Shown here in pieces: positions 1,178 to 6,282 of a DNA stretch of 35,678 nucleotides. Within the stretch, counting starts at the first letter, position 1, and the number at the start of each line of letters is the position of its first letter. The position numbers and the translations under genes were made by a program. Under the pieces are notes generated by a model. It saw nothing but the letters and a program-made list of their open reading frames with translations. It made no database searches and had not been told where the DNA came from. Origin of the DNA: a virus (lineage: Duplodnaviria; Caudoviricetes); the IMG/VR virus record IMGVR_UViG_3300023283_000077, positions 1-35,678 of that record; one strand, 5' to 3'.

Positions 1178-1380
1178 CCGCCCTTGATCTTGTCCTTGGC
1201 TTTGACCCGGCCAATCACGACAACAACAGCGCCAATGATCCCGACCAGGCCGGTCGTGATCTGCTCCTGGCCCTCCGGGCCAATCTCCAATCCGAATGTG
1301 GCGGCCACGGCGGCGGCACCGGTGACCAGGGCGCCGATGATGGTCTTGCTCTGATACCAGGGTTTGCTTTGCTCATTCAC
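1174..1380 (-). CDS. Holin (2 TM)
   Basis: 68 aa, KPWYQSKTIIG N-terminus, two TM helices, basic C-terminus, follows endolysin. Confidence 0.75.
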   Translation of the reverse strand: MNEQSKPWYQSKTIIGALVTGAAAVAATFGLEIGPEGQEQITTGLVGIIGAVVVVIGRVKAKDKIKGG

Positions 1381-1691
1381 GGGCTCTTCCTCCGGGGCTG
1401 GTACTCAATGTGTAGGTGGGTGTCCTCGAGGATCACGTCGTAGTCGATTCCCAGCGACTCGCTGATCAGCTGCGCCAGGGGCTCCCGATCTTCTGCTGAC
1501 ACGTGCCGCGTGCGGAGGTCAACGGCACTGCCGGCATAATGGAGGCTCGTCGGGCTATGCCTGCCGTCGAGCAGCGATGTAATCACGCAGTCGTACCCGC
1601 CCCGCCGGTAGGCGGACTCGCTCACAATGACAGCCAGCAGCAGCTCAGGCCGTATACCCTGGCAGTCCACGCCGTCTTTGATCTGCAGCAT
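1377..1691 (-). CDS. Endolysin, peptidase M15-like Zn peptidase
   Basis: SLHYAGSAVD and HLHIE motifs; GAGG RBS before ATG 1691; first gene after late promoter. Confidence 0.8.
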   Translation of the reverse strand: MLQIKDGVDCQGIRPELLLAVIVSESAYRRGGYDCVITSLLDGRHSPTSLHYAGSAVDLRTRHVSAEDREPLAQLISESLGIDYDVILEDTHLHIEYQPRRKSP

Positions 1692-1701
1692 CAGGTGCCT
1701 C

Positions 1702-1728
1702 AAACAAAAAAGCCCCGCAGAACGGGGC
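1702..1728 (-). terminator. Intrinsic terminator 2 of late leader
   Basis: GCCCCG-TTCTG-CGGGGC then TTTTTTGTTT on minus strand. Confidence 0.8.
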
Positions 1729-1753
1729 AAGGGCTCGACTATCTGGAGGCCAG

Positions 1754-1788
1754 AAACGCAAAAGCCCCGCCGGTGAGGGCAGGGCTTT
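1754..1788 (-). terminator. Intrinsic terminator 1 of late leader
   Basis: AAAGCCCTGCC-CTCACC-GGCGGGGCTTT then TGCGTTT on minus strand. Confidence 0.75.
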
Positions 1789-1837
1789 CGTTGGTGGCAT
1801 GTTGGCCCGGGCGCAATACGACCAGACTACGGGAAAA

Positions 1838-1866
1838 ACTCTAAAACATGGCGGCCACCTATGCAA
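1838..1866 (-). promoter_or_regulatory. Late promoter (pR'-like)
   Basis: TTGCAT-N17-TAGAGT upstream of tandem terminators and lysis genes; -10-like TAGTCT just downstream of the predicted start. Confidence 0.7.
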
Positions 1867-1897
1867 GTATTTTTGGGTATCCGGATTAAGTGGAAGA

Positions 1898-2428
1898 TCA
1901 TGCGTTTCTTCTGTACTTTGTGCGATAGCGCTGCATGGGCACTGGGTCGCCCTGTTTGAGGGCCCGGTAGGCTACCTGGTATTCGCGTCTACGATCAGCA
2001 TCCCTGCCATCGGCTCGCCTAGCCCCTGGCGGCAGCTTGTGGTGGTCTCCGGGGCGTTGCTCAGTTATTAGCTTGCGGTGGCGAGTGTCATCGACGAGCG
2101 CTTTTCGTCGCCGCCCGCCTCGCCGCGCAGCTTCTACAGCAGACGGGAGATGGTCATAGGTCAGGCGTCCAGAGGTGATCTGGTCCTGCATCTGCAAGGA
2201 CAGCGCTTCGCGTGTGGCGGTCCCGGAAAGAGGGTAGCGCTTCGGTATGCCCCACTTTTCTCGGTAATCGTCATGCGTCATGCCATGGGTGCGAGGGAGG
2301 TGGGTGGCCAGACCGCGAAACCAGCGCCCACATTCCAAGCACTGTATGCGCGGGCCGCCAACGTAGGCGTCCAGTTCGTCGAGCGTCTGGAATGGCCTGT
2401 CACGCACGTCAGAAACCCAGCGACTCAA
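1898..2428 (-). CDS. Ros/MucR-family zinc-finger protein with basic C-terminal extension
   Basis: IQCLECGRWFRGLATHLPRTHGMTHDDYREKWGIPKRYPL = C-x2-C-x9-H-x4-H plus Y-R-x-K-W-x-x-P-x-x-Y-P; start TTG 2428 or GTG 2407. Confidence 0.8.
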   Translation of the reverse strand: MSRWVSDVRDRPFQTLDELDAYVGGPRIQCLECGRWFRGLATHLPRTHGMTHDDYREKWGIPKRYPLSGTATREALSLQMQDQITSGRLTYDHLPSAVEAARRGGRRRKALVDDTRHRKLITEQRPGDHHKLPPGARRADGRDADRRREYQVAYRALKQGDPVPMQRYRTKYRRNA

Positions 2429-2762
2429 TCATGGCCACCCGCTCGGCAAGGCTCATCTCCCGCACGCGGGCGGCGAGGTCACGCAGCGCCGAGTCATCGC
2501 CGGTGTCGCCGTCTTCCAGCTCGGCATCCAGGTGCTTGATCAGCAGCGGTTCTAGTAGTGATCCTGACAAAGTGGTCAAAAGTAGCTGTCGCTCAGCTTC
2601 TGTCAGATCGGGAGGCTGACTGCAAGCCAGCTCATAGCGCTCGGCAATGGTGGCCAGGCGTTGGCTTAGGGTATGGCGTTCGCCCAGGTTATCGACGACC
2701 CGCTCCAGGGGCGGGCTGAGGTAGATGCTAGGTCTACGCTTGTTACGCGACTTGTCGGTCAT
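2409..2762 (-). CDS. Putative ribbon-helix-helix-like regulator (117 aa)
   Basis: GGAG RBS before ATG 2762; N-terminal KRRPSIYLS strand followed by two predicted helices; helical acidic C-terminal part. Confidence 0.55.
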   Translation of the reverse strand: MTDKSRNKRRPSIYLSPPLERVVDNLGERHTLSQRLATIAERYELACSQPPDLTEAERQLLLTTLSGSLLEPLLIKHLDAELEDGDTGDDSALRDLAARVREMSLAERVAMIESLGF

Positions 2763-2773
2763 GACGGATCTCC

Positions 2774-2802
2774 AAAGCAAAGCCCCGACGCGAGGCCGGG
2801 GC
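2774..2802 (-). terminator. Intrinsic terminator/attenuator inside cassette operon
   Basis: GCCCCGGC-CTCGC-GTCGGGGC then TTTGCTTT, between gene 1 and gene 2. Confidence 0.7.
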
Positions 2803-2810
2803 AGCTTGAG

Positions 2811-3005
2811 TTAGCTGTTGCAGTAGTCACCCCAGAGGCGATTCATGATCTCGTCAGCTTCGGCATCGCTGGAGGTCCATACGCCATCGACATAGTTGCC
2901 AGTGCTGTCGCCGACCTTGGCGCTGTGGCCTTGCTCCTCCAGCCAGGTAGCGAATTCTTCGGCTTCCGGGGTATCGACGGCGATGATGATTTCGTAAGTG
3001 CTCAT
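2811..3005 (-). CDS. Small highly acidic protein (64 aa), unknown function
   Basis: AGGAG RBS; 14 D/E vs 2 K/R; first gene behind its own promoter. Confidence 0.8.
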   Translation of the reverse strand: MSTYEIIIAVDTPEAEEFATWLEEQGHSAKVGDSTGNYVDGVWTSSDAEADEIMNRLWGDYCNS

Positions 3006-3079
3006 GGTAGGTCTCCTAGTTCTGCGCCGGTGTGGCCAGTTCTTCGGTTGATGTGGGCTTCGTTTGCCTCACATGATTA

Positions 3080-3108
3080 AAGGTAGCACCCCAGGTGCTA
3101 CCTTGCAA
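3080..3108 (-). promoter_or_regulatory. Cassette sigma70 promoter with overlapping palindromic operator
   Basis: TTGCAA-N17-TACCTT; perfect inverted repeat AAGGTAGCACC-CCA-GGTGCTACCTT at 3080-3104. Confidence 0.8.
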
Positions 3109-3204
3109 GGATTATTTCCAACCAGACAATCCGGAGAGGGTTTTGGTTGCCCCAACCTACTGATTTGGGGAGATCAACCAGCTATTCCGGATACCCGTAT
3201 TTTT

Positions 3205-3546
3205 TCACCCGGCCTGATCAAGCCCATGCAGCAGGCCTTCCACATAGGCCTCTGCCTGGCACAGCAAGTGCGAGCTGGTGTGGCGGTTCATCGCCAGCGC
3301 CCGCCCGATCTGCGAGATACTCAGGCCCTGGATGTAGTAGGCCATGATCACCGCCGCCTGACGTTGGTCTCGCACCCTGAGCTGGGCCACGGCATAGTCC
3401 ACCCGGCCTGCCACCTCATCGGGCACATTCGGCATGCCAATGGTTGAGCCAAGTCCAAGCTGCTGCCGGCTGTAGCCGAGCGTCGTAATGAGATCCCCCC
3501 TGGCCCATCTTCCCCAATCCTCCAGCATGTCCTGTGTTGTCTTCAT
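3205..3546 (-). CDS. Q: Late antitermination protein Q-like
   Basis: MLEDWGRWAR N-terminus, C-terminal HTH and AEAYVEG; position between replication and lysis. Confidence 0.8.
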   Translation of the reverse strand: MKTTQDMLEDWGRWARGDLITTLGYSRQQLGLGSTIGMPNVPDEVAGRVDYAVAQLRVRDQRQAAVIMAYYIQGLSISQIGRALAMNRHTSSHLLCQAEAYVEGLLHGLDQAG

Positions 3547-3579
3547 CGCCTGCCCCTTATTTTCCTGTCAACGGTATGT

Positions 3580-3832
3580 CAAGGGTCTTTTCTAAACCCT
3601 TGCCGCTTTCAGCCCTTGTCCCCCAACGGTTGGCAAGGGTGGCAAGGGTGGCAAGGGTTGTATCCTCGCGCACGTGGGAAATATTTTTGTCTGGCCTGAG
3701 AGTACGCCCGTAAATACACACGCCCGTGCGCGCGCGATAGACCCTTGCCACCCTTGCCACCCTTGCCGGCCCTTGTGTCCCAAGGGCTGGACCCGGCAAG
3801 GGTCTGTTGCCAACCCTTGCCATGCCCTTGCC
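3580..3832. repeat. Iteron array, putative replication origin
   Basis: 14 CAAGGG/CCCTTG cores; (GGCAAGGGT)x3 at 3632-3658 and (ACCCTTGCC)x3 at 3741-3767 in inverted arrangement around a spacer containing AAATATTTTT; directly downstream of primase-helicase. Confidence 0.8.
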
Positions 3833-3837
3833 AACCA

Positions 3838-6282
3838 TCACCCTGCGTCCTCCATTGGGATGCTCCTCTGGCGGAATTCCGCCACACTGCGGCCGAGCCA
3901 CTCGGCCTCCCTGTCATCCGACGGCGGCTCCCCGATGATAAAAACCCGCTTTCGGTGCTCGATGCCCTGGATCCTGAAGCGCCGCGTGTCCTTGGTTATC
4001 CGGGTGCCCAGGATGGTGAGCAGCTTGGTCTCACTCATGGCCTTGTTGCCCGTGGCCGTGCACCATCGTCGGTAGACCTGGTACAGGTCTCGGGTGGTGC
4101 AGGAGATGAACGGCGCATCCAACTCGCCATCCCGCCACTCGCGCCAGAAAACCTCGAAGTTGGGCAACGAAAAATCGATCAGACGTCGTTTGGCGTCCGT
4201 GTCCGGCGGCTTACTGTGCGGCCCGAATCCGGTGACGCGGTAATCCAGCAGGTATCGGTACATGGCCTCTGGCCCGCCTCGCTCCAACTCCCACTCCACC
4301 AGGTGCTGGAGCTCGTCCGGCAAGGTATGCCGGGGCCAGGCGACCATGAACCGCCGGTCTGAGGGGTCGAGGGGAAACGGCTGTATCTCGTTGGAAAGGA
4401 AGACACCGTTCATAAAGTTGGCCTCCTCCCAACCGGCCACGAACTTGCGCTCGATCCGCTGTGTCTGGCCCGTGATCATGTGCTTGATCGTGCCCATCTG
4501 GTTGTGCTTCTCTGTGCGGCTGAGCACTTCCTCAAATACCGCATAGAGCAGGCGGGATCGCCAGTCGGTGTACTGGGATTCGAGCTGGTGCTGGCCAAGC
4601 ACGGAGGCGTACTCGCCATAAAGCCGGGTCATCACCTCGCCGAAGAACAAGCTCTTGCCGGAGCCCTGCACCTCGCTATGGAATAGCAGGGCAGTGTCGA
4701 GTTTGGCGCCGACGTGCTGTAGTGGATAGGCGAGCCAGCACAGCACCCAGTGCAGCGCATCGCTGTCCTGGTTGCAGAGGAGGTCGAGGGTTTGCAGGAT
4801 GCCCTGGCAGGCATCAGGGCTGCTGGCCGGCTGGAGCGGTAGGCCTGTGAAGGTGTTGATGGTCTTGTTGGGGTCCGACCTTTCGGTCGGGTCAAACACT
4901 ATCTGATCATCGTGGACGACACGCCGACGAGAGTGCTCTGCCCACCAGGTAAAATCCTTCGGCAACAGCGCTTTGACGGCATCCAGCGAGACGATTTGCC
5001 GTAGCTTCTGGTCCCATACGTTCCGTGATGGGTATACCAGGGTGAAACGTTCCAGTAGCCCCTGACGCGGATCGTGCGGATCCTGGTAGCCCTTGACCGT
5101 ATCCCAAGTGACTGTTCGCCTGTCGTCGTGCTCCATCCACTCGCCGAACAGCTCCTTGCCCATGAGGTCCCGGACGGCCGTCTTACGCAAAACCTGGCGC
5201 TCGTCGTAGTCGTACACCTTGGTCTCGCCGAAGATCAGGGCAAATCGCCGGAGCGCCTGCTCCAGTGTTGGCCGCTCCCCCGCTCCCCCATCAGAGGGGG
5301 CCGGGGGAGTTCCGGGAGGGGGCCCCGGATCGGCGGGGTCTGATTCCAGGGCCGCCTGGATCTGCGCCTTGAGCGCATCGGAGCCCGCCGCGATGCACAA
5401 ATCATTGAAGTCCGTGAGGCCCTCTCCTGACAGGGCCGAGCAATCGGGCACCACCCACCGCCCGCCAACGGCACTCGCGGCACTGATCGCCTTGTTCCGG
5501 CCCGGGTTGCCTGGCGTCTGCGCGTCATCGTCCCCGGCCACCAGGATATCGCCCAACGCGTCCCGGAATGCCGCGTGCAGGGCCCGGGCCACCGGTTCCA
5601 GGTTACCGGCATCGAAGGCCACGGCGACGGTGTAGCCGGTAGCCTCGTGGATGGACGCACCCGTGGCGTATCCCTCCACGATCACCAGGGGGCTCTGCGT
5701 GATGTCGCCGATCAGGTGGCAGGCACCGCGCTTGGGCGTGCCGGTTAGGAACTTTTTGCTGCCATCCTCAGCTACGAACTGCAGGCCCACCAGGTGCGGG
5801 CCGTCCTCATCGAATCGGTGCAACGGAACCACCAACTTGCCCCGGGCAAATCGGGTGCCGTGGTTACGCACCCGTTTGCGCTGCAGGTACGGGCAGGCGC
5901 CGCCGGCAGGCAGGTTGCTCCATATCTGCTGGGCCCGCTGCGCGCACTCTGTTGCCTGGCGCTCACGCTCCTCGCGGGCGGCCTGACGGGCGGCCTCCTG
6001 CTGGCGCCTGAACTCGGCGCGGTCCTCGTCTGAGAGGGGGCCGGGGGTAACACTGAGGGACTGGCTGTCCGAGTCTGATTTCCAGTTACCGTAGGCACCC
6101 GCGTAACCGATGCCGCCGGAACGCAGGTGTACCTCATGGATGACATACCACCCGCTTTTCTTGCCGCCCTTGTCCGGCCTGGGGTGGTCCACCGGCACGC
6201 GCACAATCTCGCCATACCGCGTGACACTCTCGACGCGCAGCCCATAGCCGCGCAGCTGGTCCAGGACGGTCGTCAGGTCCAT
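3838..6282 (-). CDS. Primase-helicase (Toprim primase + SF3/D5-like NTPase)
   Basis: Toprim IVEGYATG, VAFDAGNL, AGDDD, TDFNDL; Walker A QGSGKS, Walker B AVFEE; Pro-rich linker. Confidence 0.9.
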   Translation of the reverse strand: MDLTTVLDQLRGYGLRVESVTRYGEIVRVPVDHPRPDKGGKKSGWYVIHEVHLRSGGIGYAGAYGNWKSDSDSQSLSVTPGPLSDEDRAEFRRQQEAARQAAREERERQATECAQRAQQIWSNLPAGGACPYLQRKRVRNHGTRFARGKLVVPLHRFDEDGPHLVGLQFVAEDGSKKFLTGTPKRGACHLIGDITQSPLVIVEGYATGASIHEATGYTVAVAFDAGNLEPVARALHAAFRDALGDILVAGDDDAQTPGNPGRNKAISAASAVGGRWVVPDCSALSGEGLTDFNDLCIAAGSDALKAQIQAALESDPADPGPPPGTPPAPSDGGAGERPTLEQALRRFALIFGETKVYDYDERQVLRKTAVRDLMGKELFGEWMEHDDRRTVTWDTVKGYQDPHDPRQGLLERFTLVYPSRNVWDQKLRQIVSLDAVKALLPKDFTWWAEHSRRRVVHDDQIVFDPTERSDPNKTINTFTGLPLQPASSPDACQGILQTLDLLCNQDSDALHWVLCWLAYPLQHVGAKLDTALLFHSEVQGSGKSLFFGEVMTRLYGEYASVLGQHQLESQYTDWRSRLLYAVFEEVLSRTEKHNQMGTIKHMITGQTQRIERKFVAGWEEANFMNGVFLSNEIQPFPLDPSDRRFMVAWPRHTLPDELQHLVEWELERGGPEAMYRYLLDYRVTGFGPHSKPPDTDAKRRLIDFSLPNFEVFWREWRDGELDAPFISCTTRDLYQVYRRWCTATGNKAMSETKLLTILGTRITKDTRRFRIQGIEHRKRVFIIGEPPSDDREAEWLGRSVAEFRQRSIPMEDAG

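Follow-up and report, generated by a model that had tools for sequence, protein, structure and literature searches.

How did a three-gene operon come to sit between the ends of a bacterial insertion sequence (IS) inside a phage genome, and what does it do there? The question is raised by positions 1867 to 3204 of the virus record IMGVR_UViG_3300023283_000077 (Duplodnaviria; Caudoviricetes), whose whole stretch of 35,678 bp was analysed and is called the window here. The reading that we favour, with moderate confidence, is that this locus holds a derivative of an ISL3 element that has no transposase and carries a likely anti-CRISPR (acr) operon, probably derived from a prophage, and that the element likely jumped into the phage whole and probably lost its transposase afterwards. 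The ends of the element closely resemble those of annotated ISL3 elements, its cargo runs into an ISL3 transposase gene (tnpA) in three other studies, and its second gene encodes a homolog of the anti-CRISPR repressor AcrIE10.

The terminal inverted repeats, at 1875-1899 and 3172-3196, are 25 bp long and complementary at 20 of 25 positions, the first 11 perfectly, and they enclose an element of 1,322 bp that is flanked by an exact 8-bp AT-rich duplication at 1867-1874 and 3197-3204. The window holds 217 pairs of inverted repeats of at least 11 bp that lie 0.3-10 kb apart, and only this pair is flanked by an 8-bp direct repeat. One hundred genomes resampled from a first-order Markov model contained no such structure (expectation about 0.002 per genome), and a chance repeat was rejected as the origin of the ends. 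A composite transposon was rejected for want of a flanking IS, and an integron cassette or site-specific insertion because the ends and the duplication are of the transposase type. The G+C content of the element is 59%, against 63% elsewhere in the genome. No transposase family was found in a Pfam scan of 45 open reading frames (ORFs) chosen from the 237 in the window, and an ISL3 transposase gave no tblastn match in the window at E<=1. The first-pass annotation, made from the letters alone, had reported the repeats, the exact duplication and the missing transposase, and it was right on each. The features of the element are as follows.

1867..1874, no strand: target-site duplication, left copy, 8 bp, an exact match to the right copy
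1875..1899, plus strand: terminal inverted repeat (inverted repeat right, IRR) on the promoter-distal side of the cargo, identical at 22 of 25 positions to the end that follows the ISL3 transposase on plasmid pHAL1
1896..1901, minus strand: first two codons of the lost ISL3 transposase; the copies of three other studies (runs X2, X3 and X6) continue into tnpA here, and genome G009 has the same junction
1898..2407, minus strand: Ros/MucR-like zinc-finger protein P0003 with a basic C-terminal extension, from matches to PF05443 and 2jsp
2409..2762, minus strand: AcrIE10 homolog P0002, 117 aa, with a predicted repressor domain of the ribbon-helix-helix (RHH) type at the N-terminus and a helical Acr domain, from profile and fold matches
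2782..2802, minus strand: terminator-like hairpin in the gap between gene 1 and gene 2; loci L002 and L003 have a similar hairpin in the same place
2811..3005, minus strand: P0001, a small acidic protein of 64 aa (net charge -12) and a candidate for an anti-CRISPR or another kind of anti-defence protein
3080..3108, minus strand: predicted promoter with its -35 box at 3108-3103 and its -10 box at 3085-3080; a palindromic operator with 11-bp arms, at 3080-3104, overlaps it
3111..3196, minus strand: left-end (inverted repeat left, IRL) region, 86 bp, with the terminal repeat at 3172-3196 and an inner repeat-like motif at 3119-3135
3197..3204, no strand: target-site duplication, right copy, 8 bp, an exact match to the left copy

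All three cargo ORFs are on the minus strand. The ORF of P0003 spans 1898-2428 and gives 176 aa from a TTG, and the start that its relatives have in common is the GTG at 2407, giving 169 aa. Its stop codon (1898-1900) overlaps the inner edge of the repeat at 1875-1899, as the first-pass annotation had remarked, and the remark is explained by the tnpA start codon, which still overlaps this stop.

The ends and the parent ISL3 element

The ends of the element are recognisably ISL3 ends, like those of Halomonadaceae ISL3 elements. A blastn search of 72,556 plasmids gave two matches, both in Halomonas and both to the 3196 end. Plasmid pHAL1 carries an 11-kb element (locus L006, 3993-15062) with an annotated ISL3 transposase and an 8-bp duplication, and its end repeat is the one that agrees with the window's 1875 end at 22 of 25 positions. 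This pHAL1 element is nested: cadR, a cation transporter, lspA and lnt are followed by an internal left end, an arsenic-resistance cluster and then tnpA. The first three of these passengers are a set characteristic of ISPpu12. The stretch 3105-3196 was matched in five of 342 Halomonadaceae genomes, as a complete element with transposase and 8-bp duplication (once 7 of 8) in G009, G219 and G310, as an end with no transposase within 11 kb in G195, and as part of a phosphite cassette in G001. In G195 (L037, 16288-16392) an ISL3 left end leads into what is left of the same -35 box and into half the operator, and no second end was found within 11 kb. Seven of the eight positions of its outer flank agree with the window's duplication, which hints at a target preference. 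Duplications of 8 bp were also found in loci L006, L016, L039, L004 and L007, and the window's element sits in an AT-rich tract, as other members do. The cluster of ISL3 transposases concerned is widespread, with 409 members. A search by end pattern alone found no viral contig, two genomes and one metagenome, and this cargo was in none of them.

The first-pass annotation had likened the ends to those of ISPpu12-like elements of the ISL3 family, which agrees with the near-identical ends that flank annotated ISL3 transposases with 8-bp duplications. The name ISPpu12-like is one that we take to fit from the passenger set in PMC4133298. According to that paper, ISPpu12a has tnpA and tnpR together with a signal peptidase and a metal antiporter. 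The ISPpu12-type transporter IS and the present element have in common the end sequences, the 8-bp AT-rich duplication and, in the parent described below, the order left end, passengers, tnpA, right end. They differ in that the passengers here are acr-aca-like genes of phage type (aca, anti-CRISPR-associated) and not metal resistance, and in that the window copy has no tnpA and lies in a phage genome.

Copies of the element were compared over positions 1200-4000 of the window in assemblies of four runs, namely X2, X3 and X6 from three other studies and X11 from the source study. The X2, X3 and X6 copies cover 1896-3196 with 36, 37 and 108 differences (cargo 92-97% identical) and have new flanks, and those of X2 and X6 stop exactly at 3196. 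At 1896 all three diverge from the window and run into a sequence that they have in common, which begins an ISL3 transposase gene; among the 342 genomes this common sequence matched one, at the start of the 433-aa ISL3 transposase of G009. The cargo contig of X2 continues for about 700 bp into tnpA, and a second contig of like depth (13.4 vs 12.8) has the rest of the gene and the right end. The outer flanks of these two contigs share one 8-mer, which is different from the window's duplication. The X3 contig continues 107 bp into tnpA, up to the contig end. In X6 a deletion of 1,080 bp lies inside tnpA, a second, independent loss of transposase, so that the gene is present in the cargo copies of X2 and X3 and broken in that of X6. 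X11 gave short identical pieces, one of which (151 bp) spans the left junction.

Pieced together from the two X2 contigs, the parent would run from the left end through genes 1, 2 and 3 and then tnpA to the right end, over about 2.6 kb. The window has lost tnpA from codon 3 on, and the tnpA start codon overlaps the stop of gene 3. A 6-bp motif is common to the tnpA start and the right end, and it is likely the microhomology behind the deletion. The window copy is a derivative and not an IS, because the ISL3 transposase is absent save for two codons. A mini-transposon assembled independently was considered and rejected, given the remnant of the tnpA start in the window and the parent found elsewhere. 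The first-pass annotation had seen a transposase-less mini-transposon with a gene cassette; the element is indeed non-autonomous now, but it is better described as a deletion derivative of an ISL3 element, as the same cargo runs into tnpA in the three other studies. The annotation had also proposed a search of the interior for the same ends at other loci. X2 carries the cargo with another 8-bp duplication, and other cargo lies on like ends in G009 and in the phosphite cassette.

The element of G009 (L016, 8294-12185) is a 3.9-kb autonomous ISL3 element with an 8-bp duplication. It has the same 86-bp left-end region (84% identical) and, directly before tnpA, a 171-bp remnant of the 3' end of the MucR-like gene (89%). 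The element adjoins hcp/vgrG-like genes, and by eye its cargo has been replaced by LysR/LysE-like genes. A second 11-bp end-like start lies just inside its left-end region.

One contig of X3 joins the left end of the cargo to a right end across 5 bp, which fits a circle or a tandem arrangement alike; a 5-bp spacing is reportedly found at ISL3 circle junctions, from work on IS1411 and ISPst9. ISL3 elements are described as forming circles (PMC3812183).

Arrival in the phage

The virus record encodes a terminase, a portal protein, an HK97-type capsid protein, CI and Cro, a primase, the antiterminator Q and lysis proteins, according to the Pfam scan. By its large terminase the closest isolated phage is Marinobacter phage AS1 (77.5%). 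The ends and the cargo point to a host among the Halomonadaceae or related saline Gammaproteobacteria. Although the window encodes CI and Cro, neither the Pfam scan of the 45 ORFs nor a tblastn search with the AS1 integrase found an integrase in it. Between primase and Q, at 3640-3840, short repeats and palindromes form an origin-like cluster. Two features of the flanks define the insertion site.

3205..3546, minus strand: antiterminator Q of the host phage, outside the element (PF06530, E 2e-12)
1838..1866, minus strand: predicted late promoter of the phage, with the element directly upstream of its -35 box

The insertion separates the Q stop codon from the predicted late promoter, and the right copy of the 8-mer follows the stop directly. 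AS1 has a Q ortholog (34%, E 9e-19) with no insert behind it, and its -35 box starts 8 bp past the Q stop. The window with a single copy of the 8-mer would have the same 8-bp spacing, and the AS1 locus serves here as a stand-in for the empty site, not as the true one. The check that the first-pass annotation had suggested, a single 8-mer at the junction in related phages, did not come through, as the flank searches found no true empty site. Relatives of the Q protein numbered none in the viral contigs and none in the 342 Halomonadaceae genomes at E<=1e-10, a 22-mer of the left flank had no match in the viral contigs, and blastn of the region against isolated phages gave only terminator matches of 27-36 bp. 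Relatives of the lysin (four loci, 57-59%) were tried as a source of the empty site and rejected, as they have a different Q-like gene and are too distant. Arrival of the element in the phage by transposition is supported by its ends and duplication.

The first-pass annotation had gone further and proposed a non-autonomous cassette mobilised in trans by a host ISL3 transposase. The non-autonomous state and arrival by transposition stand; the step in trans is less favoured, given that an autonomous form exists and that IRR positions 20-21 are changed. The corresponding alternative is that the transposase was lost first and that the 1,322-bp cassette then moved into the phage in trans, as a mobile insertion cassette (MIC), which seems to us possible but somewhat doubtful. 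MICs are named as trans-activated elements in PMC4133298. A parallel is a phosphite cassette of 4.7 kb in Halomonadaceae, which has no transposase and whose left end is identical at 47 of 48 positions. Its copies at two unrelated sites, where the 8-bp duplications differ, are 99.85% identical, so such ends do move without a transposase of their own. By its sequence it is clearly a cassette moved in trans, and it makes movement in trans plausible for this ISL3 family. The cassette (L004, 1341-6048, and L009, 6001-10712, at one site; L007, 3316-8027, at the other) holds lysR, genes for phosphite/phosphonate uptake and a ptx-like NAD-dependent dehydrogenase. The exact duplication in the window and the wide spread of ISL3 transposases of this cluster also speak for this route. 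The MIC231 type and the window's element are alike in having IS-derived ends, passengers, a target duplication and no transposase; the window's element differs in having ISL3 and not IS231 ends, one of them mutated, and in that its deleted form is seen at one site only. The deleted form is known from this phage alone (the window, its source run X1, and the 151-bp X11 piece), whereas all three other copies keep the tnpA start. The window's IRR (1875-1899), moreover, is changed at positions 20 and 21, which are invariant in 16 of 16 related ends (eight loci, two of which are the same element). In run X1 no close transposase was found, only one 425-bp piece less than 90% alike, with the limit that contigs show presence and not absence. 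Since an autonomous form with the same cargo exists, insertion of the whole element and later loss explains the locus at least as well as movement in trans, and we lean modestly towards loss after arrival.

A neutral insertion, decaying selfish DNA in an AT-rich spot with no gain for the phage, is quite unlikely. The element was found in a single phage lineage and in an AT-rich tract like those of other members, and because Q and the late promoter are spared the insertion may be merely tolerated. Against it, the loss of the transposase is clean whereas all three cargo genes have stayed intact, as have the operator and the hairpin. The same three-gene module, without the ends, also occupies the corresponding position in an unrelated prophage (L003), with a Q-like gene on one side and lysis genes on the other.

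The AcrIE10-type cargo

The first-pass annotation had recognised three cargo ORFs, which stand, and had left the cargo unidentified; it can now be described as a phage-type acr-aca-like operon. Its second gene product, P0002, is assigned as a full-length homolog of AcrIE10, an Acr-Aca protein. The P0002 family profile matches AcrIE10 with E 4e-17 over 110 of 117 positions. The P0002 model (predicted local distance difference test, pLDDT, 88) has AcrIE10 as its only Foldseek match (TM 0.74, probability 1.00, E 1.5e-3), and VIA aligns the two with Z 13.7 and a root-mean-square deviation of 4.0 over 111 residues, the next unrelated entry having Z 2.6.

AcrIE10 is described as a repressor of the RHH type whose binding site is an inverted repeat across its own -35/-10; it is bound by Cas7 as well, which lifts the repression. 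In Klebsiella most of the inhibition comes from the upstream gene, and AcrIE10 is mostly a regulator (PMC13530269). Eight AcrIE10 residues hydrogen-bond Cas7, and E78 is essential (PMC11317147). Five of the eight are identical in P0002 (Q56, S65, E68, E78 and D83 in AcrIE10 numbering), with a binomial p of 0.04 against a background of 28%, and the equivalent of E78 is invariant in 44 of 44 family sequences. Among the DNA-reading residues, R7 and S10 of AcrIE10 are kept as R9 and S12 of P0002, and V28/T29 map to L32/S33. The P0002 operon likewise has an inverted repeat over its own promoter, at 3080-3104, a predicted operator as in the AcrIE10 family.

The operon thus resembles acrIE9-acrIE10 of Enterobacterales plasmids in its AcrIE10-type second gene, its small upstream gene and the inverted repeat over -35/-10 (PMC13530269). 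It differs in that P0002 has 28% identity, in that the first gene is not AcrIE9 and varies by locus, in its MucR-like third gene, and in its location, on phages and an ISL3 element of saline Gammaproteobacteria. The operator arms of the window are 11 bp with a 3-bp centre, versus a 2-bp spacer for AcrIE10 by the arm definition of PMC13530269.

Homologs of P0002 were found at 11 viral loci (some repeats of one another) and in five of the 342 Halomonadaceae genomes; the plasmids gave no match. None of the 11 loci, which are of prophage type, has ISL3-like ends, the best match having at least 9 mismatches of 25. A palindrome with arms of 10-12 bp overlies a matching -35/-10 pair in seven of the 11, two of them with changes in both arms, and an eighth locus has a degenerate copy. 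The gene upstream of the P0002 homolog varies among the loci (at least six unrelated proteins by eye, mostly small and acidic), and a MucR-like gene stands next to the homolog in two. Over 108-116 bp the window's leader shares 87-92% identity with prophage copies, and it begins right behind the left-end region. In a quick unrooted tree (64 rows, 117 columns) the window's six-member cluster stands beside two prophage copies with a Shimodaira-Hasegawa-like approximate likelihood ratio test support of 92, too weak for direction. Taken together, the cargo is identified as a phage module in which a promoter-operator precedes a small acidic gene that varies, an AcrIE10 homolog and, in some loci, a MucR-like gene. 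It was probably captured from a prophage by an ISL3 element, this direction being suggested by the wider spread of the end-less form.

Some of these loci show variants of the module. The P0002 homolog of L003 (2986-3330) has an N-terminus almost equal to Klebsiella AcrIE10 and another operator, and its C-terminal half resembles that of the window, so that the DNA-reading part appears to have been swapped. In L010 (1854-2597) a 247-aa protein with weak helix-turn-helix (HTH) matches stands behind the P0002 homolog in place of the MucR-like gene. Small unrelated proteins under the same operator lie upstream of the homolog in L012 (1901-2875), L026, L022, L025, L027, L013 and L028. One sister first gene encodes 128 aa, with a C-terminal end that is weakly AcrIC4-like (E 0.014). 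The first genes of P0002 operons are candidate anti-defence genes.

The first gene product of the window, P0001, is widespread (198 cluster representatives at E<=0.001) and its model is confident (pLDDT 97), but its fold had no Foldseek match at E<=0.001 and a best VIA Z of 4.4. The best match in PHROGs had E 0.05 and in the ESM Atlas 0.78, and a single-sequence search of the PDB returned nothing usable. Among 46 longer or fused relatives, three had HTH domains and none an Acr family; two weak viral loci were uninformative. P0003 matches PF05443 (E 2e-14, residues 27-75) and the Ros structure 2jsp (E 6e-11), is 73-78% identical to prophage copies, and probably binds DNA. It has the zinc-finger core of Ros/MucR regulators at residues 25-78; unlike them, it matches the Pfam model over 64-112 of 123, the N-terminal half being absent, and is prolonged at the C-terminus by a long basic stretch.

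Probable history, action and meaning of the element

The favoured history would begin with a module of operator, acidic gene and AcrIE10 homolog, sometimes with the MucR-like gene, such as is seen in prophages without ISL3 ends. An ISL3 element may then have taken the module in between its left end and its transposase, leaving the tnpA start overlapping the MucR-like stop, and the assemblies point to a 2.6-kb autonomous form elsewhere with another 8-bp duplication. The duplication shows that a copy went in behind the Q stop and ahead of the predicted late promoter without damage to either, and tnpA would later have been deleted from codon 3 to the right end, probably via the 6-bp microhomology. 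By analogy with AcrIE10, the operon would be transcribed on cell entry, P0001 and perhaps P0002 would block type I CRISPR-Cas, and P0002 would then repress the promoter by binding the palindrome. That the cargo inhibits a type I CRISPR-Cas system is, by this analogy, rather probable. Also in its favour, Cas7e, the type I-E Cas7, occurs in 80 of the 342 Halomonadaceae genomes.

A number of observations weigh against this account. The parent is a composite of two X2 contigs and was not seen whole, and no close phage with the empty site was found (viral contigs, 342 Halomonadaceae genomes, lysin relatives). A consensus promoter scan gave no sites, the cargo promoter falling below its threshold. 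P0001 had no match in Pfam, NCBIfam or PADLOC, and its best match in the PDB (177,635 sequences), 9vx9 'Anti-CRISPR protein', has an E of only 0.5 and serves as a lead. Of four sister first genes, one has a weak Acr match (the AcrIC4 match above) and three have none. N63, Y74 and R116 of AcrIE10 are not kept in P0002. E78 and D81 also form the dimer-of-dimers surface of AcrIE10 (PMC13530269), so their conservation may serve repression alone. Finally, just one of the five genomes with a P0002 homolog has Cas7e, which is no enrichment over the 80 of 342.

The cargo may instead be another kind of regulated phage accessory (moron) operon, a tentative alternative that we put short of an even chance. 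P0002 would then be a repressor only, P0001 a non-CRISPR anti-defence protein, a toxin-like protein or a superinfection factor, and the MucR-like protein would silence or counter-silence AT-rich DNA. The division of labour in Klebsiella would suit it, where the upstream gene is the main inhibitor (PMC13530269), as would the want of a solid Acr match for P0001 and of Cas7e enrichment among carriers. It sits less well with the Cas7-contact residues of P0002, kept above background, with the acrIE9-acrIE10 layout of the operon, and with the two weak best matches of cargo-type genes, both of which were anti-CRISPR structures out of the 177,635 sequences.

A bolder extension of the preferred anti-CRISPR reading is that the parent is an anti-CRISPR transposon, in which tnpA is the last gene of a captured acr-aca operon and the AcrIE10-like repressor also controls transposition, that phages keep the operon and shed tnpA, and that P0001 is a new widespread Acr family. 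We regard this as unlikely. If it were true, entry into a naive cell or rising Cas7 would turn on CRISPR inhibition and jumping together. Against tnpA as an operon gene stand the terminator-like hairpin after gene 1 and the G009 element, which keeps just the last 171 bp of gene 3 before tnpA, so that tnpA may need no more than the signals there.

ISL3 transporter IS, non-autonomous cassettes and acr-aca operons are already known as classes. In a literature search at title and abstract level, covering few subscription journals, no paper described an ISL3 element that contains an acr-aca operon. The movement of acr-aca operons between unrelated phages is mostly attributed to recombination. Here several stages of a transposition route are visible together: a free phage module, an ISL3 element with cargo and transposase, deletions that struck the transposase twice independently, and a copy lodged between Q and the lysis genes of a phage. 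This suggests that insertion sequences can ferry acr-type operons between phages. The finding would also extend the RHH-type Acr-Aca protein AcrIE10 to phages and insertion sequences of saline Gammaproteobacteria, where the AcrIE10 homolog may act as a marker gene: the small proteins encoded upstream of it, at least six of them unrelated, become candidates for a role against defence. Since the tnpA start is tied to the operon, it can be asked directly whether an anti-CRISPR repressor regulates transposition.

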